DNA from: Pseudomonadota bacterium | Lineage (GTDB): Bacteria; Pseudomonadota; Gammaproteobacteria; JAKBBU01 | Assembly: GCA_021808365.1 (NCBI GenBank) | Contig: JAKBBU010000002.1 | Location: 13,703-77,702 of the forward strand | Direction of reading: 5' to 3' | DNA: 64,000 nucleotides | Shown: positions 22,420 to 45,069 of the stretch, piece after piece | How the letters are laid out: each line of letters starts with the position of its first letter | Numbering within the stretch: the first letter of the stretch is position 1 | Made by a program: the position numbers and the translations under genes | Notes under the pieces: generated by a model | What the model was told of the DNA's origin: nothing | Databases searched by the model: none | What the model saw: only the letters and a program-made list of their open reading frames with translations

Positions 22420-22491
22420 GTCAATGAAGCTGAATGACCGGCCGGAACTGCAATTTTGCTGGAAAGTCAAACAAATGTTGAGGAGAGTTTC

Positions 22492-25400
22492 ATGGAACAA
22501 GAAGAATTAGAATCAAATGAGGGTCCAAATATTATTGACCCAGAAAAGCCAGTTAAACAAGCACCTTCCCAAATTATCTTTTTTGATCTCCCTCCTTTCT
22601 CGAGTTACGAGAGTTTTGCAACCTATTTTAAAAACCGAGTCCATAAGCAAAAAGAAGTTGCTAACCCAGAAGAACTTGAGCTGTTGTGTGGATTTGCATT
22701 GCATCATCTGTCAAAAAACAAGCGCACGGATAATATTCTCGTATCTATTGTTCAACTCATCGGTTGTGGAAATGAAGAAATAACAAAAGCGGTTGTGACT
22801 CACCTGCAAACTATTACAAAAATCCCCCATGAAGGCCTTGCTTTGTTCCGTGCTTTGCGAACATTCACCAAAAATTTAGAAAAAACAAACCAACACGCTG
22901 ATCGAGTTTCATTAATACAACTATTTTTAGAGGTTATGAATGCTATTTCAGAATCAGGAAAACTCACAGGGACACTCTCTTCAAAAACCATATTGAATGC
23001 CTTAAACACTGTGAATGTACTGTTGAGCCATATGCTGAAGGAAAACATAACACTTAATGCTCATCAACGAAAAGCTCTATTAGAAACGAGTGAGAAGTTT
23101 GTTGTGAATCTGAAAAAAGACGCTGCTCGTTTTCCAAACCATTATTTTTTAGCATATCAAACAACAGAAAGGCTATCAGCTATTATAGCAATGGAATTGG
23201 AAAAAGATAAGAAAGATAGAGTCCAGAAACAACACGATGAAAAAATAGACATCGTATTTGACATCGTGGGCGCAGGAGGATCTTTTATAGCTGGAAGTGC
23301 TGGATTAGCCCTGGCCATAGGACTCTCTGCAGCCTCGCATGGTGCCCTTGCTCCTGTCCTGATCTTTCCAGCATGTGTCGGGTTTGGAGCTGGCATTTTT
23401 GGTGTTATAGTGTGCATCAAAAATATTAAAGGTCATTACAACACTTTAGAAAGCTTGAAAGTTTCGACAAATGTTCAAGCTTTAAAACTTCCTCTCAAAA
23501 CTGCCGAGGTACCGGATGATATACCTTTGAGATCTGAAAAACTCCATTTAACATCTCCATTACCCGACTTTGAGGATATGAAAGTTGGTACACTTTATAT
23601 TGAAAAAATCGAAAAAAATAAGAACAAAGAACTAGAGAAAGGAAAGCCTTATTTAGCCTATAAAGCAAAATCTGGCCAGAACAATGAAATTTTAATTTCA
23701 GGGACTATATCACGTGAAAAATTAGGTAATGACGCATTTAAAAATATCAAAGATAAACCATCATTAAACTCAATGAAGCAACAAATTCTTAATATTACCT
23801 TCGAAAGAGGCCACACCTGCTCTTGGGATCAAGTTTTAACAAACATTGAAAAAAAATTACACGACAGCTCCAGAAAAAATCAGCCTTCTTCTTGGGATAT
23901 GATGAATTTCGTGTATTGTTTGACACAACTAAGGCTCAGATCTAAAACAGCAACACAAAAAGTGGACCAAAGAATAAAAAATATTTTTAGCGAAATTTAT
24001 TCGAAATATATCACTTCAAAGAAAAACTCTCATATTAGTGCATTTATTCTTCACAATATTTTATTACTCCGTAATAAAAAGTTAAAAAACTATCCTTTAC
24101 GAGGCAAAATCACGCCGTTTCTTTTGGGAGATCCACCGCTGGAACCTGAGAAAAATGAACAAAAGTCAGTTTCTGAAACCCTTAATCGTTATAATGCTAG
24201 TCGTATTTTTGAGAAAAGTCTGGGTAAGCGAAAGCGTTTATATCAAGAGAGCGTTTTAAATCAAGATAATCAGAAAATTATTCCTGATATTAGTTTAAAA
24301 ACCCATTGGTTCAAACTATTCAAGTCGGATGAGTGGGTCGACAACGCTCTACAATTTTACGGATCGAATCAATTTGATTTAGCTGCTAGAGAGTTGTATA
24401 ATGTGAAACGTCGCATTTTATTGCCTAAACAAACTTCTCACTGGGCACGTGAGATTTATAATATTTTGATAAATACCCCTGAGATCAAGGGCCAGCATCC
24501 TCCAAAACTCTCTCATGAAGATAAAATTCATCAAATGCTATCAGAGATCGATGATACTTTGAGCCAATATTATCAAAAAGATATTGCCATCCCTTTGTTA
24601 CAAGGCTCAAGTAATAACACACTGGATAATTGCTACATTCACTTGACCTTAATCGACCGAAAAGAGCAAAAGCAGCATGAAGAAGTTCTTTCAAAAAGTG
24701 CAGTTGATGATGATAAAGAACAAGAGTATGTAAAAAATTACGAAGTATTGTACCAACAAGACTCTCCGATTGAATTAAATCAGCTATGGCAATCCGAATC
24801 CTATCACTTTCAAAAAATTGAGCACTCGCCTAAACATCTAGTGATTCGAGGACCTGCAGGGATAGGAAAAACCACGATGCTGCGCTGCCTTGCACTTCAT
24901 TGGGCAAGAACCTCTGAAAAGACACAAGAATCTTTTAAAGTTTGGCAGGTTCCACTGGATATTTCCAATTGGCGCGCACATTTTGCTCTCCTGCTTCATG
25001 TGCCTCTCCGAAAACTGTCAACATATACACCGCGTAATATGCATCTTCCTGCTTGGAATGATTTATCCCCAAATGGACGACGTCTTGCGGAGTTCTTTGA
25101 ATACCTTTATGGCAACTTACACCCCGAACACATCATATGGCTGGCACGTAGCTTATCGTCTAAACAAGAAAATGATCCTCGTATCCTTTTATTGTTAGAT
25201 GGCTTGGATGAAATTAGTGCTTTGTTAGAAGAAAATTTCGCCTCTGAATCAAACATAGTGGATGCCGTTAAGCAGCAACAACACGAAGACCGATATCATC
25301 TTCTGCAGAGTTTGTTAGATCATAAAAACTGGCTATTAACCACGCGCCCCCATCTCGCCGATCATCCTAAATTAAATCATCATGACACACATCATCTGGC

Positions 25401-27606
25401 ATTAACAGGGTTTAACTCGAACAGTAAGAAACACTATATTGAACAATATTTCCGTGCTTTCGAGGATGAGGAGAAAGAAAAGAAAATTGAACCTGTTTTA
25501 ACATGGCTCAATCAACCTCATTTGTACGAATTGACAGGAGTCCCGCTGCAACTTGAGCTCTTGTGTTATCTCGCCTCGAGAACAGATAACTTTCAAAGTT
25601 GGACTCAAGATCTTTCACTGACTGAACTTTATGCTGAGCTATTCACTGCACTCTCAAAACGATTTTTAGAGAAATATCCAAATTTTTTGGAAAATCATCC
25701 AAATTTGGGAAAGGCGAAACCCAATCCCAAAAAATTAAATAAAAAACAAATCTTCTCGCTTTGTCAAGAACCAATCATATGGTTATCTGAATTCGCCTTA
25801 GAAATGATGTTTGCAAAAGAAACGATTGGATCTTTTTCAAGTATGCTTTCGAAAACAATTTTTGAGGTAACCGTTAATCAGAACCTTGAACAAAAAGAGC
25901 GTATGTTTGAAGCTGCGTTTGAAAATTTTGGGGTGCTCACACCATATGATGCTGCAGCGGATGAACTTGACAATAAATTATATTATTTTCAACATTTGAC
26001 CTACCAAGAGTTTTTAGCAGCGTATGCCTTAGTACAACGGTTACTCGTGTGCTCAAAAAAAGAAAAAGATTTTTACATCAATAAAATTCAAAGTCCTTTT
26101 TATCATCGCATGCAGATTTTTATCGTCGGATTACTCAGTCAATCTGAAGTGACTGAAATTTTTTTACCGAAGTATGAATATCTTCAACGTCACAATATAG
26201 TGGATGCTTTACTAAAGGCGGCGATGAGACCGTTAGGAAATATAGAAGAATGGTCTTTCTTCAATGTATGTAGCATACTTCCACAACATCAAAAAGAAAA
26301 AGTTCATAAGCAGCACCTCTTCCATCTTTTAGATGCCAGTTTGCCCCTCGCTTTGGCGAAAGAGTCGTCCAGTAATGAAAAACTGATCTTGCCTCCCCAA
26401 AAAAACCTGATAGCGAAAGTGCTAATAGCATTCTCTACGAAAGAGATCTCAATTAAGGAGTCGCTGAATAATAAAAAAATACCGCTCTCGCTCCAAGAAA
26501 ATCTGCTGCGAAAAATAATAAGGGCGCTTGATACTGAATTGGAGAAAATAAGCTCTCTCCGTCTAAAGAATGAAAAATTCGCTAAGTCGCATGAGATGCA
26601 CCCTTATGGTATCTCCTTTCTGTCAAAACGCATTCTGCAAACAAATGAAGTTAAAATATCCCTAGAAAGGGCTTTGCGTTTAAATGCTGAAGATGCTTTG
26701 AAATTGATACAAAAGTTTGATTGTGCTTTGCCGGAATACCTGGAGAAATACTTATGCATCGCTACTGAATCCAACGACTTAAAGTTATGTGCACTTGCAG
26801 TACAGACCATTTTAAAACTTGGACGATACGCAAGTGAAGAAATTCAGCTCAAGTTGATAAATTACCTCCAGAACAAGGCATCTTATGTTCGCATATGTGA
26901 TGATGCCATCCTATGGTCGTGGTTTGCCCCTCACGCCAGTGACAAGTTTAAAACGGCATTAGGAAAATTTTGTAATGTGCAAGAACCCATCAACATCCAA
27001 ATAACCGCAGCCATGATCATCGGTGCGTTCGGCCGACACGCCAATGAAACGCTCCAATTCAAATTAGCAACGCTTTGTGAGGCGCCAGAACCTGATGTCA
27101 GAATCGCTGTCGCAAAGGCTATCGGAAACCTCGGCCAGTATTCCAGTGAAGAGCTCCAACTCAAATTAGTAGTATTGATGAAAGCTCAAGAGCCTAATGT
27201 TCAAAAAGCAGCTGCTAAAACTATCAAGCAATTTAAGGAAAAATGGCTTACCCAGACCACCAAACAAGCTCTTAAACAGCTGTACGAAGATGGGCTTCTT
27301 TCTAAAAATCTAGAATCTTCTGCTTTGCCGAAGGTTGGTTTATTTCCAAACCCTATTGTATTAAATACTCCTTCAAGGCCTCCCTCTGATAAAGCTGAGG
27401 ATGAGTCTTTTTTCCAAGAACTAACGTCTGATGCATTGACTTTATCATCGATTGGTTTAAATTCTGCACCAAAAACTTCCGCATCCTCTTCCTCTGATGA
27501 GGAAAAAGCAAAGGAATTTGAGCCTGACTTGAAAAAGTCATCGTCTTTTTCTGATGATGATGAAGATGAAGCCAGAAGAAAAGATCCTTCTTTTTATTTA
27601 TTATAA
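22492..27606 (+). CDS. Large STAND/NACHT-family NTPase with an N-terminal glycine-zipper transmembrane hairpin, C-terminal HEAT-like repeats and an acidic Ser/Asp/Glu-rich tail
   Basis: Start chosen at MEQEEL (GAGGAG RBS). Walker A RGPAGIGKTTML, Walker B ILLLLDGLDE and LLTTRP sensor motif define a NACHT domain. VGAGGSFIAGSAGLALAIGLSAAS...GFGAGIFGVIVCI is a two-helix TM segment. Repeated EELQLKL...(E/Q)EPNV(R/Q)...AAK(A/T)I motifs indicate HEAT/PBS-type repeats. Confidence 0.8.
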   Translation: MEQEELESNEGPNIIDPEKPVKQAPSQIIFFDLPPFSSYESFATYFKNRVHKQKEVANPEELELLCGFALHHLSKNKRTDNILVSIVQLIGCGNEEITKAVVTHLQTITKIPHEGLALFRALRTFTKNLEKTNQHADRVSLIQLFLEVMNAISESGKLTGTLSSKTILNALNTVNVLLSHMLKENITLNAHQRKALLETSEKFVVNLKKDAARFPNHYFLAYQTTERLSAIIAMELEKDKKDRVQKQHDEKIDIVFDIVGAGGSFIAGSAGLALAIGLSAASHGALAPVLIFPACVGFGAGIFGVIVCIKNIKGHYNTLESLKVSTNVQALKLPLKTAEVPDDIPLRSEKLHLTSPLPDFEDMKVGTLYIEKIEKNKNKELEKGKPYLAYKAKSGQNNEILISGTISREKLGNDAFKNIKDKPSLNSMKQQILNITFERGHTCSWDQVLTNIEKKLHDSSRKNQPSSWDMMNFVYCLTQLRLRSKTATQKVDQRIKNIFSEIYSKYITSKKNSHISAFILHNILLLRNKKLKNYPLRGKITPFLLGDPPLEPEKNEQKSVSETLNRYNASRIFEKSLGKRKRLYQESVLNQDNQKIIPDISLKTHWFKLFKSDEWVDNALQFYGSNQFDLAARELYNVKRRILLPKQTSHWAREIYNILINTPEIKGQHPPKLSHEDKIHQMLSEIDDTLSQYYQKDIAIPLLQGSSNNTLDNCYIHLTLIDRKEQKQHEEVLSKSAVDDDKEQEYVKNYEVLYQQDSPIELNQLWQSESYHFQKIEHSPKHLVIRGPAGIGKTTMLRCLALHWARTSEKTQESFKVWQVPLDISNWRAHFALLLHVPLRKLSTYTPRNMHLPAWNDLSPNGRRLAEFFEYLYGNLHPEHIIWLARSLSSKQENDPRILLLLDGLDEISALLEENFASESNIVDAVKQQQHEDRYHLLQSLLDHKNWLLTTRPHLADHPKLNHHDTHHLALTGFNSNSKKHYIEQYFRAFEDEEKEKKIEPVLTWLNQPHLYELTGVPLQLELLCYLASRTDNFQSWTQDLSLTELYAELFTALSKRFLEKYPNFLENHPNLGKAKPNPKKLNKKQIFSLCQEPIIWLSEFALEMMFAKETIGSFSSMLSKTIFEVTVNQNLEQKERMFEAAFENFGVLTPYDAAADELDNKLYYFQHLTYQEFLAAYALVQRLLVCSKKEKDFYINKIQSPFYHRMQIFIVGLLSQSEVTEIFLPKYEYLQRHNIVDALLKAAMRPLGNIEEWSFFNVCSILPQHQKEKVHKQHLFHLLDASLPLALAKESSSNEKLILPPQKNLIAKVLIAFSTKEISIKESLNNKKIPLSLQENLLRKIIRALDTELEKISSLRLKNEKFAKSHEMHPYGISFLSKRILQTNEVKISLERALRLNAEDALKLIQKFDCALPEYLEKYLCIATESNDLKLCALAVQTILKLGRYASEEIQLKLINYLQNKASYVRICDDAILWSWFAPHASDKFKTALGKFCNVQEPINIQITAAMIIGAFGRHANETLQFKLATLCEAPEPDVRIAVAKAIGNLGQYSSEELQLKLVVLMKAQEPNVQKAAAKTIKQFKEKWLTQTTKQALKQLYEDGLLSKNLESSALPKVGLFPNPIVLNTPSRPPSDKAEDESFFQELTSDALTLSSIGLNSAPKTSASSSSDEEKAKEFEPDLKKSSSFSDDDEDEARRKDPSFYLL

Positions 27607-27613
27607 TAGCGTT

Positions 27614-27636
27614 GTGGGTTAGCAAAGCTAACCCAC
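27614..27636. terminator. Hairpin (gtgggttagc-aaa-gctaacccac) between convergent genes; candidate bidirectional terminator
   Basis: 10-bp perfect stem with a 3-nt loop, located between the NACHT gene stop (27606) and the entericidin-like gene stop (27656). No strong U-tract. Confidence 0.4.
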
Positions 27637-27655
27637 GTAATCCAAATTTCTAATC

Positions 27656-27802
27656 TTAATCGTCGTATGCAGCGCCAGAAATAGCATGGCCGCCTGCTTG
27701 AACATCTTGTCCAACACCGTTGACAGTATGGCAAGCCGCTAAGCTGGCTACGAAGATGAGCAGAAGCCCGCATCCAAAGATTTTCCGTATTACCGTTTTC
27801 AT
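27656..27802 (-). CDS. Entericidin A/B-family small lipoprotein (48 aa); not in the supplied ORF track
   Basis: Own translation: MKTVIRKIFGCGLLLIFVASLAACHTVNGVGQDVQAGGHAISGAAYDD. GGAGGA RBS 6 nt upstream, signal peptide plus lipobox LAAC, and an entericidin-like glycine-rich tail. Confidence 0.65.
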   Translation of the reverse strand: MKTVIRKIFGCGLLLIFVASLAACHTVNGVGQDVQAGGHAISGAAYDD

Positions 27803-27973
27803 GGTTTCCTCCTGAAGTGAGATGTTTTTAACCTACATTCGACAGTTATACCTGAGCAAAAAGAGCTAAGGCACTGAAGATAGAGATCTTTTTGCCGAAT
27901 TAGGTTAAGTATAGACCAAAAATCTGAATTGTCATGGGAGGTTTTCTTATCGGTTGGCATAAATTGTTCATGA

Positions 27974-28010
27974 AAATTGGGAGGTAGCCTCCCAATTTTC
28001 ACGATTTTTT
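27974..28010 (+). terminator. Orphan rho-independent-terminator-like hairpin (aaaattgggagg-tag-cctcccaatttt followed by cacgatttttt)
   Basis: 12-bp perfect stem with a T-run on the plus strand, but no annotated plus-strand gene ends here. Confidence 0.35.
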
Positions 28011-28087
28011 GTCAGGCGTGAGGAATTTTATTTAAGCTATAAAATGTAGACCACAACCTTCAGGATAGGTATAGTGTTGGCACCAAA

Positions 28088-28374
28088 CAGGGCTATCGGG
28101 TTAAAAGTTAATCATTTTTGGTCTCGTCATCCCGGAATTTAGCGATTCTTCGTGCGTACTCGCACGTTAGAATCGCTTAATATCCGGGATCCAGTTATAA
28201 ATAAGATTTTTTCTTATGAAAAAATCCCTTTTTATTTTCCTGGATCCCGCCATAGGTATTATAAGTCTAAGTCGTTCTAAGCACGAGTACACGCAAGAAC
28301 GACTAAATTCCGGGATGACGAAGCCCAAAAATGTCATCTTTTCGAAAAATGATTAACTTTTAACCCGATAGCCC
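28088..28374. repeat. About 290-bp composite palindromic element (outer 32-bp inverted repeats cagggctatcgggttaaaagttaatcattttt plus two internal hairpins containing cccgg(g/a)at and gagtac(a)cgc cores)
   Basis: Read directly. Partial copy at 36980-37083; shared cores at 15199-15423 and 35719-35847. Confidence 0.6.
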
Positions 28375-28397
28375 TGGGCACCAAAAGGACAAAAGCA

Positions 28398-28796
28398 ATG
28401 AACCTTCAATTTCTTGAAAATGCCATTATCCGACTTGACGAGGGTCTAGCACGCTATCATCAAGATACCAACGATACACAAATTCGGGATGGACTTATTC
28501 AGCGTTTTGAATTTACTTATGATCTAGGCTACAAAACGCTCAAACGATATCTTGAGTCAGTATCAGCCACACCTTCTGAATACGATAGTATATCTTTTGC
28601 TGACCTTATTCGCAGTGCAAATGAGCAAGGTCTCTTGCTTGGAGATTGGCCAAAATGGCGGCAATATCGTCATCTGCGAAATCAAACCAGCCATACTTAT
28701 GATGAAACAATTGCACTTTCAGTAGTTAAGCATATTCCAGAATTTTTACAAGAAATTGTTTTTTTACAAAATAAATTGCGGGAGAATTTAACGTGA
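28398..28796 (+). CDS. HEPN-domain nucleotidyltransferase substrate-binding protein (HI0074 family; HepT-like toxin)
   Basis: QRFEFTYDLGYKTLKRYLE family signature and an RNQTSHTYDE HEPN R-x4-6-H motif. Confidence 0.8.
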   Translation: MNLQFLENAIIRLDEGLARYHQDTNDTQIRDGLIQRFEFTYDLGYKTLKRYLESVSATPSEYDSISFADLIRSANEQGLLLGDWPKWRQYRHLRNQTSHTYDETIALSVVKHIPEFLQEIVFLQNKLRENLT

Positions 28797-39206: not shown

Positions 39207-39435
39207 CCTCGTTTTGGCAAACAAAGGCCATCCTACCATAGCCTAACGCTCATTTCACTACTCATACATCTCGCATTAATACGCATTGGTGCAGCCTTCC
39301 CTGTGCTGAGTCAATGCGAAAAATGATTAACTGTTCAGTTTTAACACAAAAACAGTCCGAACGATAATTTTATATGACTTTTGGTAAAAACTTATGTTAT
39401 CCTATTGCTATTGTAAGAATAAATGGGGAAACCTC

Positions 39436-40034: not shown

Positions 40035-41192
40035 CTATATACTCGCGGCCAACAGTTTTAATACTAACTCAGCAGCATCATAAGTGGAAGGATTACTCAT
40101 CATCCTTTTTTTCATCGCCTGTAATTTTAATCTTGTTTGCGCACAATACGCAGGATCATCCAAATAACGTTGAATTTCTAGAGCAATTCGTTTCGGTGTC
40201 GCAAGATATTGCACAAGTTCTACTGCAATTTCCTCACCCGCCACAATGTTGCAAAGGCCATAATAAGGAGTATGAACCAATACGAGTAACAACAAGGCCG
40301 AAAACAAGGACATACGATATGCTAGAACGGCTGGAATCTCAAGTAAAGCCACTTCAAGCGTCACAGTTCCAAACACCGACATCACGGCATCACAACAAAT
40401 TAATACATCATAAAGCGATTGAGAAATAATCGTCACCGGTGCTTGGCTTGTCTTTAAATAAGATTCAACCCATTCTGATTTCAAAGTTGATGCGAGCGGC
40501 ATTATAAATTGTAGATTGGGATCGCGTGCATACAAACGATTAACTGCTTTCACAAATAAAGGTAATACACTTTTAACTTCGAACGGGCGACTACCTGGCA
40601 GAATACCAATCACGCGCCGCTTTGGATTTGGATCCAATTGAAATTTAGCCTTAGCTTCTGGAATGGATAAACTCGGCTGAACTTGAGCAGCCAGGGGATG
40701 CCCCACATAATAAGCTTCAACGCCGTGACGGCGATAAAAATCAGCTTCAAACGGCAATAAGACTGCCATCATATCCACATATTTTTTAACGATCTTCACA
40801 CGGCCTCGCCGCCAAGCCCAAAGCTGAGGGCTGATGTAATAAAAGACTTTAATGCCCGCCTGATGTGCTTTTTTTGCGAGCCGCAAATTGATTTCAGGGT
40901 AATCTACCAAAATTAATACTTCAGGCTGATGCTCAACTAAATAATGACATAATTTTTTATAAATTTTAAGAACACGCCAACCTTCAGTGATGATTTCATA
41001 AGGCCCTGTTAAACACATTTCTGAAATATCATGAAACGTCTGCACACCTGCAGCGCGCATGCACTCCCCACCGGTACCACAAAATTCAAGATGAGGATCT
41101 AATTGTTTTAGGCGTTCAACTAATCGAGCTGCATTTTTATCACCTGAGGCTTCGCCTGCAACAATGAGGATTTTTTTTGCAGAATTAACCAA
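40035..41192 (-). CDS. lpxB: Lipid-A-disaccharide synthase
   Basis: KILIVAGEASGDKNAARLVERLK N-terminus and GT-B fold length (385 aa). Confidence 0.9.
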   Translation of the reverse strand: MVNSAKKILIVAGEASGDKNAARLVERLKQLDPHLEFCGTGGECMRAAGVQTFHDISEMCLTGPYEIITEGWRVLKIYKKLCHYLVEHQPEVLILVDYPEINLRLAKKAHQAGIKVFYYISPQLWAWRRGRVKIVKKYVDMMAVLLPFEADFYRRHGVEAYYVGHPLAAQVQPSLSIPEAKAKFQLDPNPKRRVIGILPGSRPFEVKSVLPLFVKAVNRLYARDPNLQFIMPLASTLKSEWVESYLKTSQAPVTIISQSLYDVLICCDAVMSVFGTVTLEVALLEIPAVLAYRMSLFSALLLLVLVHTPYYGLCNIVAGEEIAVELVQYLATPKRIALEIQRYLDDPAYCAQTRLKLQAMKKRMMSNPSTYDAAELVLKLLAASI

Positions 41193-42282
41193 GCGTAACC
41201 TCTCGAATCACCTGTGCTACAGCACGTACTTGTTCATCCGTCATTTCCGGATAAATCGGCAGGGATAAACAACGCCGAGCAACATCCTCACTGTGTGGAA
41301 AATGAAGATGTGAATAAGTTTCCAAAAATACAGGCTGGCGATGAATGGGTTTTGGATAATGAATGGATGAAGCAATATTCATTTTGTTCAGGGCTTGCAT
41401 GATTTCACTGCGGCAATCGGTAAGAATCGTGTATTGATGATAAACATGCCCTCCTGCATAAATTTCAGTGGGCGTGACAACATTCGTATCAGACAATAAT
41501 TCGTTATATTGCGCAGCAATGCGGCGACGTGCCAAATTAAATTCGTCAAGGTATTTTAATTTAACTCTTAAAATAGCTGCTTGAATTTCATCAAGCCGAC
41601 TATTTAAACCAATTTCAGTATGCTCATAACGAATTTCACTGCCATGGGCGCGCAAGGAACGTACATGCCTCGCACGTTCATCAGACTGCATGGTGATCAA
41701 CCCACCATCACCAAAGCCACCTAAGGTTTTCGTAGGGTAAAAACTAAAGCATCCAAACTCCCCCATACTACCTGTCTGACGGCCTTGATAGAGTGCTCCA
41801 AACGACTGCGCACAATCTTCAATGACAATTAAATTGTGTTTTTTAGCCAAATTTAAAATCGGCTCTAGCTCAACCACTTGCCCATAGAGATGAACAGGAA
41901 TAATAGCGCGTGTTTTATCGGTGATTGCCGAGGCGATTTTATTAACATCAATGTTATATGTTTTTGGATCAATATCTATAAAAACCGGTTTTGCTCCCAA
42001 ATAACGAATGGCTTCGCAAGCTGCAATAAATGAAAATGGCGTGGTGATCACTTCATCACCTGCTTTGATTCCTTCAGCCATGAGCGCGAGGTAAATCGCA
42101 TCAGTCCCTGAAGCCACGCCGATTGCATGTTTAACACCTAAATAATGTGCCGCTTCTGCTTCAAAAGCCTGAACATGAGGCCCTAAAATATAATGTCCTT
42201 TTGCAAGCACATCCAATACATTGGCATCAATTTCAGCTTTTAATCGTTGGTATTGTATTTGTAAATCGACCATTGGGATCAT
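41185..42282 (-). CDS. DegT-family PLP-dependent sugar aminotransferase (GnnB-like UDP-3-keto-GlcNAc aminotransferase, inferred)
   Basis: Catalytic Lys retained (SFYPTKTLGGFGDGG). Positioned between a Gfo/Idh/MocA oxidoreductase and lpxB. Confidence 0.65.
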   Translation of the reverse strand: MIPMVDLQIQYQRLKAEIDANVLDVLAKGHYILGPHVQAFEAEAAHYLGVKHAIGVASGTDAIYLALMAEGIKAGDEVITTPFSFIAACEAIRYLGAKPVFIDIDPKTYNIDVNKIASAITDKTRAIIPVHLYGQVVELEPILNLAKKHNLIVIEDCAQSFGALYQGRQTGSMGEFGCFSFYPTKTLGGFGDGGLITMQSDERARHVRSLRAHGSEIRYEHTEIGLNSRLDEIQAAILRVKLKYLDEFNLARRRIAAQYNELLSDTNVVTPTEIYAGGHVYHQYTILTDCRSEIMQALNKMNIASSIHYPKPIHRQPVFLETYSHLHFPHSEDVARRCLSLPIYPEMTDEQVRAVAQVIREVTLG

Positions 42283-42299
42283 ATTTAAAACCCTCTTGT

Positions 42300-43295
42300 T
42301 TAAAAATAAAGTGGATGATTCTCTTTAATGTAGTCTAATTGCTGATGCAAAGATTCAGTGATTTTAATCGCAGTTTCTAACGCTGCACGACCCGCCTCAC
42401 CACTAACCATAGGCGGAATTCCTTCAGCAATGGATCTCAAAAAGGCAAAGATTTCACTTCGAATCGCATCGCTTTGTTCAAATTCGTGTTCTTCATAGGT
42501 AATTTCAGGAATGCCAGGAAACATTTCTTCTTCACCTTTACGGTGAACCACCACGCGACGATGTTGGAAATCAATGGAAAGATAAGCATCATGCTGGAAA
42601 ATCTTAAATTTCCGTTCTGTTTTAAGGCTAGCACGACTTGCCGTCACATTCGCAACGCAACCATTGGTGAATTTAATGCGTGCATTGGCAATATCTACAT
42701 CGTCAGATAATACTGGGCCGCCACAAGCATCGAGGCTTAAAATGGGCGAATAATTAACCATCGACAAAATAAGATCAATATCGTGGATCATAATATCCAA
42801 TACCACATTCACATCCGCACCGCGCGGATTGTAAGGTGCAAGCCGATGTGCCTCAATAAAAAGAGGTTCTTTTAAAACGCCTTCAAGAGCGTGATTGACG
42901 GCATTAAACCGCTCAAGATGACCAATTTGTAAAATCACATTTTGTTCTTTAGCAATTTTAATCAATTGGTCTGCTTCTTCTAAAGTGCTTGTAATCGGCT
43001 TTTCGAGTAAAACATGAACGCCATGCTCTAAAAAAAACTTTGCTACTTCATAATGTGCCTTCGTGGGCACCGCAATACTGACCGCATCGACCTTGCCAAT
43101 TAAATCGCGATAATTTGAAAAGATCTCGATGCCCTTATAACCGAGTTCAGACAAGCCACCAATCACGAGTTGTGCATGCTCTACATTGACATCGGCCAAG
43201 GCAACGAGTTTTGCTTGTGGAAGCATTGCAAATTTTTGAGCGTGGAATTTGCCAATATAGCCAATGCCCACGACGGCACATTTTATTATCTTCAT
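42300..43295 (-). CDS. Gfo/Idh/MocA oxidoreductase (GnnA-like UDP-GlcNAc 3-dehydrogenase, inferred)
   Basis: MKIIKCAVVGIGYIGKFH Rossmann N-terminus. The ORF track's N-terminal extension runs through the palindromic element and is rejected. Confidence 0.65.
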   Translation of the reverse strand: MKIIKCAVVGIGYIGKFHAQKFAMLPQAKLVALADVNVEHAQLVIGGLSELGYKGIEIFSNYRDLIGKVDAVSIAVPTKAHYEVAKFFLEHGVHVLLEKPITSTLEEADQLIKIAKEQNVILQIGHLERFNAVNHALEGVLKEPLFIEAHRLAPYNPRGADVNVVLDIMIHDIDLILSMVNYSPILSLDACGGPVLSDDVDIANARIKFTNGCVANVTASRASLKTERKFKIFQHDAYLSIDFQHRRVVVHRKGEEEMFPGIPEITYEEHEFEQSDAIRSEIFAFLRSIAEGIPPMVSGEAGRAALETAIKITESLHQQLDYIKENHPLYF

Positions 43296-43375
43296 TAAAA
43301 TACTCGCCAGTGGCTCCATAAGTACAGTACAATTTTCAGGGCGCATCCTGACATTTTTTGGGCTAAAAAGCAATT

Positions 43376-43459
43376 TTATAGCATTTCTCATAGAGGAAAG
43401 GCTGCGCCAATGCGTGTTGTGGCATTGGCGCAGCCTTTCCTCTATGAGAAATGCTATAA
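43376..43459. repeat. Perfect 38-bp-stem hairpin with loop GTGTTGTG (REP-like element, copy 1) in the gnnA/rnhB divergent region
   Basis: ttatagcatttctcatagaggaaaggctgcgccaatgc-gtgttgtg-gcattggcgcagcctttcctctatgagaaatgctataa, read directly. Confidence 0.6.
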
Positions 43460-43493
43460 AGCACGACAAAACTAACGACTGAAAGGAAAAACT

Positions 43494-44063
43494 ATGGAAA
43501 ATCTCTGTGTTGGTGTCGACGAAGCAGGCCGAGGGCCTCTTGCAGGGCCTGTCATCGCAGCTGCCGTGATTTTTAAAACAGCCTACAGAATAAAAGGGTT
43601 AGGAGACTCAAAAACCTTAAGCGCCGCTCAACGTGAAGATTTAGTTGAAGCGATTCAATCCCGAGCTGTGGCGTTTGCGATCGGGCGGGCTGAGGTTGAA
43701 GAAATCGACCGGCACAATATTTTACAAGCCAGCTTATTGGCCATGGAACGCGCTGTTGCCGCCCTACACACGAAGCCTGATCTAGCCCTGATCGATGGCT
43801 TGCATCTACCCAAACTCAGCATCCCTGCCGCAGCTATTGTCGGCGGAGATGCCCATGTGCCCGTCATTAGCGCCGCATCAATCTTAGCCAAAGTTGCCCG
43901 GGATCGGGAAATGGTTGAGTTAGATGCGCTTTATCCTCAGTATGGTTTTGCACAACATAAGGGTTACGGTACAGCGATCCACCTTGCTGCCTTGAAGCAA
44001 TACGGCCCCTGCCCTGCACATCGTTTGACGTTTGGGCCGGTTAGACACCTTTTACCCCCTTAA
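43494..44063 (+). CDS. rnhB: Ribonuclease HII
   Basis: [20 protein letters not shown] catalytic DEAGRG motif, 189 aa. Confidence 0.9.
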
Positions 44064-44071
44064 TTTAAGTT

Positions 44072-44154
44072 GATCTTTCATTCAGCAAAAAGAAGGCTTC
44101 GCAAATGCGTGTTGTGGCATTTGACGCAGCCTTCTTTTTGCTGAATGAAAGATC
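44072..44154. repeat. Nested hairpin (26-bp perfect outer stem, inner stem caaatgc/gcatttg, same GTGTTGTG loop), REP-like copy 2, between convergent rnhB and the GDSL lipase gene
   Basis: gatctttcattcagcaaaaagaaggc...gccttctttttgctgaatgaaagatc, read directly. May double as a bidirectional terminator. Confidence 0.6.
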
Positions 44155-44163
44155 ACGACGACC

Positions 44164-45069
44164 TCACCCCACCATCCCTGTATCTTCTAAATCTTCCTTC
44201 GCAATGACAGCAAAGTCATGATGAATTTTACGAGTAGGATGAATCATATCCCAAAAAAGATAATCATCTGGATCAGCACAAATCACTGGAGCATCCCCTT
44301 TGACAGCTTTCCCTCTAAAACTGCCTTGATAACAAGGTGTCGTAACATTATTCACGCCAAATTGCTTCGGATGCTCAATCGCAGCATCAAACAAGTGAGC
44401 AGCATCGATTTGAACAATATGCAAACTGGGTTGCTCGAGCCCCAATGTATTCAAGTCTTGAGCTAAATCTTGATTATGCGCCACAATCAAATCATGCAAA
44501 TGCGTAGCATAATCAGGATCTGTCGCATTTTTTCGCTGCCCCCAAGGGTTCTTACTTAAATCAGGCAAATTAATGACCAAGAAATTTTGCGCACCTCGCG
44601 CAGCCAAGGCACGGATCCCCCAAATAATATCAGACACATTTTTAGGCACCTGACTCAATGCTGCATAAGGATGGAAAAAATAATTATTTGCACCGATCCA
44701 AATTACATAGAGCCCATCAGGATCAAGAGCCGTCTGTGTTCTCAAATAATTTTTAATTTGTTTTTTATAATTAGGTACAAAACCCGTACTCGTTTGCGCA
44801 CCTCCATACGCAAAATCATGCAAGGCATTTGGTTTAAGCCCAATAAGCGGCACTAAATCTTCAACCCAGACAGGGCCATTACTAAAACGCCCGTCATAAT
44901 AAGGCGGAGAAAGCGGTGTTTTTGCATCTTTTAGCTTATAAAGATTACCATTATCAGATAGGCTATCGCCAAATACATATAAAGCATCAATTTGAGCATG
45001 TGCTGTTAACGAGCACATTAGAACCAACATCAATGCAACATATTTTAACCAAGATGTTCTTACTGCCAC
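44164..45069 (-). CDS. Secreted GDSL/SGNH-family lipase/phospholipase
   Basis: Signal peptide followed by the VFGDSLSDNGN block I motif. Confidence 0.8.
   Translation of the reverse strand: MAVRTSWLKYVALMLVLMCSLTAHAQIDALYVFGDSLSDNGNLYKLKDAKTPLSPPYYDGRFSNGPVWVEDLVPLIGLKPNALHDFAYGGAQTSTGFVPNYKKQIKNYLRTQTALDPDGLYVIWIGANNYFFHPYAALSQVPKNVSDIIWGIRALAARGAQNFLVINLPDLSKNPWGQRKNATDPDYATHLHDLIVAHNQDLAQDLNTLGLEQPSLHIVQIDAAHLFDAAIEHPKQFGVNNVTTPCYQGSFRGKAVKGDAPVICADPDDYLFWDMIHPTRKIHHDFAVIAKEDLEDTGMVG

Follow-up and report, generated by a model that had tools for sequence, protein, structure and literature searches.

We present a small family of palindromic repeats from the genome of a deep uncultured gammaproteobacterium, in which two long hairpins flank the gene rnhB and have only a 40-nt core in common. 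The same core is found at other positions of the genome, next to unrelated genes, whereas the outer stems of the two hairpins differ from one locus to the other. Our explanation as a whole, to which we assign a probability of roughly one half, is that the core is a dispersed module and that the arms around it were made by intrastrand template switching. The analysis covers a stretch of 64,000 nucleotides, referred to as the window, together with overlapping and related contigs from other assemblies. The host is only distantly related to named organisms; its LysS protein is 67-69% identical to the best named matches, which come from Thiohalophilus and Sedimenticola.

The first hairpin, copy 1 (43375..43460, no strand assigned), is an 86-nt perfect palindrome with arms of 39 nt each (43375-43413 and 43422-43460), which are 100% complementary and form a 39-bp stem around the 8-nt loop GTGTTGTG, as read on the plus strand; both arms are confirmed on independent contigs. 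The second hairpin, copy 2 (44071..44155, no strand assigned), is 85 nt long and occupies the spacer between two convergent genes. Its outer stem consists of 28 perfect base pairs (44071-44098 with 44128-44155), followed on the inside by a T.C mismatch, 2 bp, a 1-nt bulge (A44124) and a 7-bp stem CAAATGC/GCATTTG, which encloses a loop identical to that of copy 1. The preliminary description of this DNA had already recognised the common 8-nt loop, the perfect stem of copy 1 and the inner stem of copy 2, but its measures need correction: copy 1, placed at 43376-43459 with a 38-bp stem, has one extra terminal T-A pair, and the outer stem of copy 2, placed at 44072-44154, is 28 bp long and not 26 bp. 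When folded as RNA, copy 1 reaches -74.7 kcal/mol (z = -16) and copy 2 reaches -58.8 kcal/mol (z = -12), and none of 200 shuffled sequences was as stable in either case. A pair of such hairpins around rnhB is far beyond chance. At both outer ends of copy 1 we also noticed the sequence TGcTATAAA, which faces outward and has the look of an extended -10 box; it was not called by the promoter scan.

The gene between the hairpins, which lies outside of the element itself, encodes RNase HII (rnhB, 43494..44063, plus strand; Pfam RNase_HII, with homologues named ribonuclease HII). Upstream of it and divergent from it is a GnnA-like gene of the Gfo/Idh/MocA type (42300..43295, minus strand), for which the best NCBIfam match is UDP-GlcNAc 3-dehydrogenase, and copy 1 is located in the spacer between the start of this gene (43295, minus strand) and the start of rnhB (43494, plus strand). 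Downstream of rnhB is a convergent GDSL lipase gene (44164..45069, minus strand); copy 2 begins 7 nt past the rnhB stop codon and ends 8 nt before the lipase stop codon. A DegT aminotransferase gene and lpxB are found beyond the GnnA-like gene, and mgtA beyond the lipase gene. The annotation thus agrees with the earlier placement of copy 1 in a divergent region and of copy 2 between convergent genes, with rnhB between the two.

The part common to copies 1 and 2 is limited to the core, AAGGCTGCGCCAATGC-GTGTTGTG-GCATTGGCGCAGCCTT, which has a layout of 16-8-16 nucleotides. In copy 1 it occupies positions 43398..43437 (plus strand) and represents the unit common to all copies. The core of copy 2 (44093..44133, plus strand) has diverged from it by one compensated pair change (C:G to A:T), one uncompensated change (the T.C mismatch) and the 1-nt bulge, while its loop is identical. 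An 18-mer derived from the core has only 2 sites in the window, which are copies 1 and 2. The outer 22-23 bp of either stem are unique within the window, and their similarity between the two copies is not above that of shuffled sequences (p = 0.1-0.2); in ungapped register their identity is ~27%. The flanks beyond the arms of copies 1 and 2 also have no significant similarity, and the hexamer CACGAC directly to the right of both copies, which we considered as a shared motif, is probably there by chance. The long stems to which the preliminary description drew attention are therefore specific to their locus, and the common part is the 40-nt core. The two parts differ in composition as well, with a GC content of 60% in the core and of 30-32% in the outer arms, the latter being similar to the local intergenic DNA (the window as a whole has 40%). 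Moreover, all three differences between the two arms of copy 2 are located within the 32-nt core portion and none within the 44-46-nt outer arms, which fits with the outer arms being younger than the core or re-homogenised.

Further copies of the core exist in the same genome. In a contig from a metagenome-assembled genome (L020; DAIAOI010000047.1, GCA_027437335.1) the left flank of copy 1 leads into the core and from there into 94 nt of foreign sequence that includes a gene start; in the contig's own numbering, positions 1-94 are the reverse complement of the start of a pncC/cinA-like gene and its upstream flank, followed by the core and by the left flank of copy 1. A 16-residue peptide from this contig end matched a 161-aa PncC/CinA-like protein, and a six-frame peptide search for open reading frames crossing the cores gave the pncC/cinA-like protein as its sole match, which led us to copy 3. 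An independent contig of the same organism (L048) opens with GGCTGCGCCAATGC-GTGTTGTG-GCATTGGCGCAGCCTT-ccctgt, 46-48 nt before the start codon of the pncC/cinA-like gene, and the core of this third copy is identical to that of copy 1. The contig L020 itself could reflect either a misassembly at the repeat or a true recombination event; it is probably chimeric, as it extends only 94 nt past the 40-nt repeat and may have been joined through it.

The fourth copy was located with a 14-mer from the flank of copy 3. It is a half copy at 39278..39305 (minus strand), gcACAGGGAAGGCTGCaCCAATGCGTaT, which comprises the flank, the left arm (15/16 positions) and the first 4 bases of the loop (nhmmer E = 7e-5), the right half being missing. 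It lies in a divergent spacer, 38 nt upstream of the start of an E1-dehydrogenase alpha gene (39239, minus strand). Copy 3 and the half copy have 6 further bases in common directly next to the core (ACAGGG/CCCTGT), and in these two copies the unit therefore extends 6 nt beyond the 40-nt core on each side, which makes the copied unit ~52 nt long in that pair. At least four loci are thus known from ~75 kb of sampled genome. Three of the four lie within 5 kb of each other, and most of the copies could thus have arisen by local duplication instead of transposition; no further copies were found in 3.8 kb beyond the right end of the window and 4.6 kb beyond its left end. The preliminary description had proposed a repeat family and had named the lack of any other core in the genome as evidence against it; with one full copy and one half copy found elsewhere, the hairpins do belong to a repeat family.

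Comparison with related organisms indicates how the hairpins came to be next to rnhB. The closest relative (contig L045; RnhB 71% and GnnA-like protein 67% identical) has the same divergent gene pair, but the spacer between the two genes measures 97 nt and has no hairpin, compared to 198 nt in the window, of which the hairpin takes up 86 nt. Because this conserved spacer is free of the hairpin, copy 1 is an insertion with respect to the relative. On the other side, rnhB overlaps dnaE in the relative, whereas in the window it is followed by copy 2 and the convergent lipase gene, which places copy 2 at a synteny break. A second relative has the canonical order lpxB-rnhB, and 27 kb of sequence from relatives contains neither the core nor any perfect stem of at least 14 bp. 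A special tie of the hairpins to this gene is not borne out: the other copies adjoin the pncC/cinA-like and E1-dehydrogenase genes, the closest relative shares the rnhB neighbourhood but lacks the hairpins, and the association with rnhB is incidental. As a separate observation on this region (40035-44063), rnhB stands apart from its usual partners. The gene lpxB is 2.3 kb off on the opposite strand, downstream of gnnA/gnnB-like genes, and the window lacks dnaE, with which rnhB overlaps in the nearest relative. The gnnA/gnnB-like genes beside lpxB suggest a lipid A of the GlcN3N type.

The best reading of the core is that of a lineage-specific, REP-like dispersed hairpin module, which represents an undescribed family of an ordinary bacterial repeat kind. 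Searches for the exact 18-mer gave 15 matches in 185,579 reference genomes and 23 matches in JGI metagenomes, all of which are chance matches without the flanks of the core. A blastn search of the core against plasmids and phages gave no match, and Rfam gave nothing at the gathering score and, at E <= 10, generic noise of the miRNA-type long-hairpin sort, far below threshold.

The module resembles REP, BIME and REPIN sequences, which are short, GC-rich, dispersed extragenic palindromes, often located between convergent genes and specific to a lineage, and which can act as terminators or mRNA stabilisers. The 40-nt core with its 16-bp stem is likewise a short extragenic palindrome, as all copies are intergenic. 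The differences concern other properties. Classical REPs have imperfect stems, and REP families comprise tens to hundreds of copies per genome together with a single-copy RAYT gene flanked by repeats. Here the core stem is perfect in copies 1 and 3, the full stems greatly exceed those of a REP in length and are perfect, the ~75 kb of sampled genome have yielded four loci, and the genes of the window include no Y1 transposase, no RAYT and no other transposase or recombinase. A GTAG tetranucleotide at the 5' foot of the REP hairpin is needed for binding and cleavage by RAYT (PMC3479197), but none of the feet of the present hairpins (GGAAAGGCT, AGAAGGCT and GGGAAGGCT) contains GTAG; an unrelated repeat at 35718 begins with TGTAGG. 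The earlier characterisation as REP/BIME-like is thus appropriate for the kind of element, a dispersed GC-rich hairpin, but not for membership in that family, because the defining 5' GTAG tag is absent.

Similar considerations apply to other classes of elements. MITE, Correia/NEMIS, ERIC, RPE and SMAG elements are, like the module, small non-coding hairpin repeats inserted in intergenic DNA. In those families, however, the termini are conserved and the centre may vary. The present copies show the reverse, with a constant centre and with termini that have no relationship to each other in copies 1 and 2. Target-site duplications are also lacking, as GCAAT/GCACG and TAAGT/CGACG, which flank copies 1 and 2, do not form direct repeats. 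Integron attC sites are bounded by R''/R' motifs (RYYYAAC ... GTTRRRY) and have an integron integrase nearby; this class was rejected, given that both boundary motifs are missing from the ends of copies 1 and 2, that the window contains no integrase, and that rnhB is syntenic with its neighbour in the hairpin-free relative. A DNA uptake sequence (DUS/USS) was also rejected, because core 9-mers or longer words each have at most 2 occurrences in the window outside the copies when both strands are counted, and a single 11-mer match at 15052 is within chance expectation. Finally, a sigma-54-like pattern in the right arm (TGGCAT-N5-..GC) was discarded on account of a poor -12 element and of the orientation of copy 2, which would point into the 3' end of a gene.

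To account for a shared core within unrelated but perfect arms, we propose the following mechanism. The 40-nt GC-rich module (16-bp stem, loop GTGTTGTG) exists as copies at no fewer than four intergenic sites of this genome. As a REP-type or miniature non-autonomous element, it would land in intergenic DNA, where it could decay to half copies and come to mark a synteny break. The core hairpin would then form in nascent DNA, and the 3' end would fold back and copy the neighbouring flank, giving rise to a perfect inverted duplication; the same intrastrand template switching would subsequently keep the arms identical. Quasipalindrome template-switch mutation, reportedly described by Ripley in 1982, makes imperfect inverted repeats perfect, can extend them by copying an arm or a flank, and would give locus-specific perfect arms around a shared seed. 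The known events usually involve a few bases, whereas the present case would require 22-23 bp per arm at two loci and near-equal final lengths. Template switching is the established route by which inverted repeats are made perfect and kept perfect in proteobacteria (PMC5941160). The local composition of the arms, the lack of relationship between the arms of the two loci and the confinement of differences to the core all fit with a template-switch origin. An alignment with the relative gives a faint indication that, of the two arms of copy 1, the left one is native. The near-equal lengths of 86 and 85 nt are not predicted by independent template switches and fit better with a unit of fixed length. 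A palindrome at 62900-63043 was considered as proof that arms can copy native coding sequence, but it was set aside for this purpose, because its left arm starts right after the conserved end of RsmB (...GFFYAVLEK) and it may equally be an inserted element.

A unit of fixed length is the basis of an alternative that we regard as unlikely, in which the whole ~85-nt hairpin is a mobile or duplicated foldback or MITE-like unit with a fast but concerted evolution of the outer stem. The arms of different copies would then be diverged homologues instead of copies of the local flank, and would be kept paired by arm correction or by selection. In addition to the similar lengths, this explanation draws on the purine-rich left and pyrimidine-rich right positions next to the core in all copies, on the 6 bases that copy 3 and the half copy have in common past the core, and on a forced alignment of both hairpins, in which 16 stem pairs are changed on both sides with the pairing kept. 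It is difficult to reconcile with outer arms that are no more alike than shuffles and that have the composition of local intergenic DNA, or with the lack of target-site duplications and of terminal repeats conserved between copies.

Two bolder extensions, which together we consider rather unlikely, are that the core is a self-extending seed, priming fold-back copying of the flank at every landing site into a perfect palindrome of up to ~85 bp, or that it is the site of an undescribed hairpin-specific recombinase, which would produce inverted duplications of the flank with a fixed length. If true, the stop at ~85 bp could mark the tolerance limit of host hairpin nucleases, and either reading would mean that bacterial repeats can remodel promoters and terminators by a route not described before.

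It is still less probable that the cores are crossover sites of a tyrosine recombinase, comparable to lox or FRT, with direct sites bracketing rnhB; genome rearrangements would then result from recombination between cores. The loxP, FRT and dif sites have inverted arms of 11-16 bp around an asymmetric spacer of 6-8 bp that is identical between partners, and the 16-8-16 core has the same anatomy, its asymmetric spacer GTGTTGTG being invariant in all three full copies. Copies 1 and 2 are arranged as direct repeats, copy 2 is at the synteny breakpoint, and in contig DAIAOI010000047.1 the core forms the exact junction between the left flank of copy 1 and the right flank of copy 3. That contig, however, is the one which reaches only 94 nt past the core and may be chimeric, and there is no confirmed recombination product: rnhB is beside the lipase gene in 10 of 10 contigs with the lipase gene, and no excised form was found among them. 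No recombinase gene is present in the 64-kb window or in 8 kb beyond it, and the long palindromic outer stems, which have no counterpart in these sites, would be left unexplained.

The core could also be an operator, recognised by a regulator of rnhB and of the pncC/cinA-like and E1-dehydrogenase genes, but we find this very improbable. In three of the four copies, GTGTTGTG is indeed on the sense strand of a gene whose start codon lies 34-57 nt further downstream, although such an orientation bias (3/3) is not significant. Copy 2 is located between two stop codons, for which reason the earlier proposal of a protein-binding palindrome centred on the loop is also a poor fit. The 40-bp core is identical in two copies including its non-palindromic centre, which points to recent common descent, and the relative expresses the same gene pair without the core.

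Assembly data bear directly on whether the palindromes are real. Every short-read assembly of the organism breaks inside copy 1, and none spans it with both unique flanks; the Logan contigs (k = 31) end exactly 30 nt into copy 1 from each flank (L021 ends at 43404 and L019 starts at 43431), which is how a de Bruijn graph is expected to behave if the reads contain both arms. That the hairpins are artefacts of assembly or sequencing, such as fold-back chimeras, is hardly credible despite these breaks, as the ENA, NCBI and Logan assemblies each join either arm to its own flank with 100% identity, the contig ends fall where a true perfect palindrome forces them to be, copy 2 is crossed by at least four independent assemblies or contigs, and the gene order agrees with that of the relative.

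Copy 2 consists of an A5 tract, the stem and a T5 tract, and was flagged as terminator-like by the promoter/terminator scan. The stem is followed by CTTCTTTTTG on the plus strand, and the mirror-image A tract gives the same on the minus strand, so that a U tract would follow the hairpin in transcripts of either direction. Given this symmetric layout of a GC-rich stem between A and T tracts, at 7 and 8 nt from the two convergent stop codons, copy 2 most likely acts as a two-way intrinsic terminator for rnhB and the lipase gene, to judge from its sequence. Copy 1 has a weak tail (CTTTCCTCTA), and so has copy 3 (TTCCCTGTTGT). The divergent spacers that contain copy 1 and the half copy are not at the 3' end of a transcription unit, and since copies 1, 3 and the half copy are all upstream of genes, they have no obvious role as terminators. 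The family differs from intrinsic terminators also in that terminators at different loci are normally not homologous in sequence, and in that stems of 38-39 bp have several times the usual length.

Small repeats are unusually abundant in this genome, which tolerates palindromic and MITE-like elements. Between convergent genes at 35718-35848 there is a classical GTAG-tagged REP doublet of REPIN-like form, in which TGTAGGTTGGGTTAGCGTACTCGCGTAACCCAACA and its perfect inverse are 61 nt apart, and another copy of the same GTAG-REP (positions 9800-9835 of L056) forms the end of a Logan contig, ~4.6 kb to the left of the window; this doublet would imply a RAYT-type system elsewhere in the genome. Intergenic MITE-like elements are located at 11226-11389, 15199-15423 and 28088-28376, with terminal inverted repeats of 48 nt at 79%, 27 nt at 89% and 32 nt at 100% identity, and a dispersed 49-nt repeat occurs at 28213-28261 and 36972-37020 (82% identical).

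The palindrome at 62900-63043 is a 144-nt element with perfect arms of 46 nt and a 52-nt centre that contains a small hairpin (CGCCAGC-AGGGAA-GCTGGCG). Its left arm begins within rsmB, 15 nt ahead of the stop codon, so that the RsmB reading frame appears to run into the element; the short-read contig L054 breaks off precisely where this arm ends. A second peculiarity of the same gene is an extra stretch at 62663-62840 (rsmB codons ~397-455): the NCBIfam RsmB profiles stop at residue 396, and a conserved C-terminal motif resumes ~50 residues further on. This stretch coincides with an imperfect inverted repeat (62689-62716 and 62803-62830, 82%), and it looks like an in-frame palindromic insertion into a housekeeping gene, similar to the palindromic elements of Rickettsia.

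Elsewhere in the window, positions 22456-29125 encode a 1716-aa NACHT/STAND NTPase with HEAT repeats; after it come a 791-nt spacer rich in repeats and a HEPN-like and MNT-like gene pair (a nucleotidyltransferase substrate-binding domain and a Pol-beta nucleotidyltransferase domain, respectively). From its gene content, this region, which has glmS and lysS on its two sides, is a possible defence or toxin-antitoxin island. At 27968-28004, downstream of the NACHT gene, is an AT-rich hairpin with a 17-bp stem (94%; TCATGAAAATTGGGAGG/CCTCCCAATTTTCACGA) and a 3-nt loop, which is unrelated to the core.

In practical terms, perfect palindromes of this kind break all short-read assemblies of the organism, and at least one contig of a metagenome-assembled genome is probably chimeric as a result. 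For the biology of such repeats, the present family adds an undescribed group of small palindromic repeats without GTAG from a deep uncultured gammaproteobacterial lineage. It is also a natural example of a common seed hairpin whose perfect stem extensions vary from locus to locus. If the arms do owe their origin to template switching, long perfect hairpins, as well as a two-way terminator, could arise in one or a few steps.
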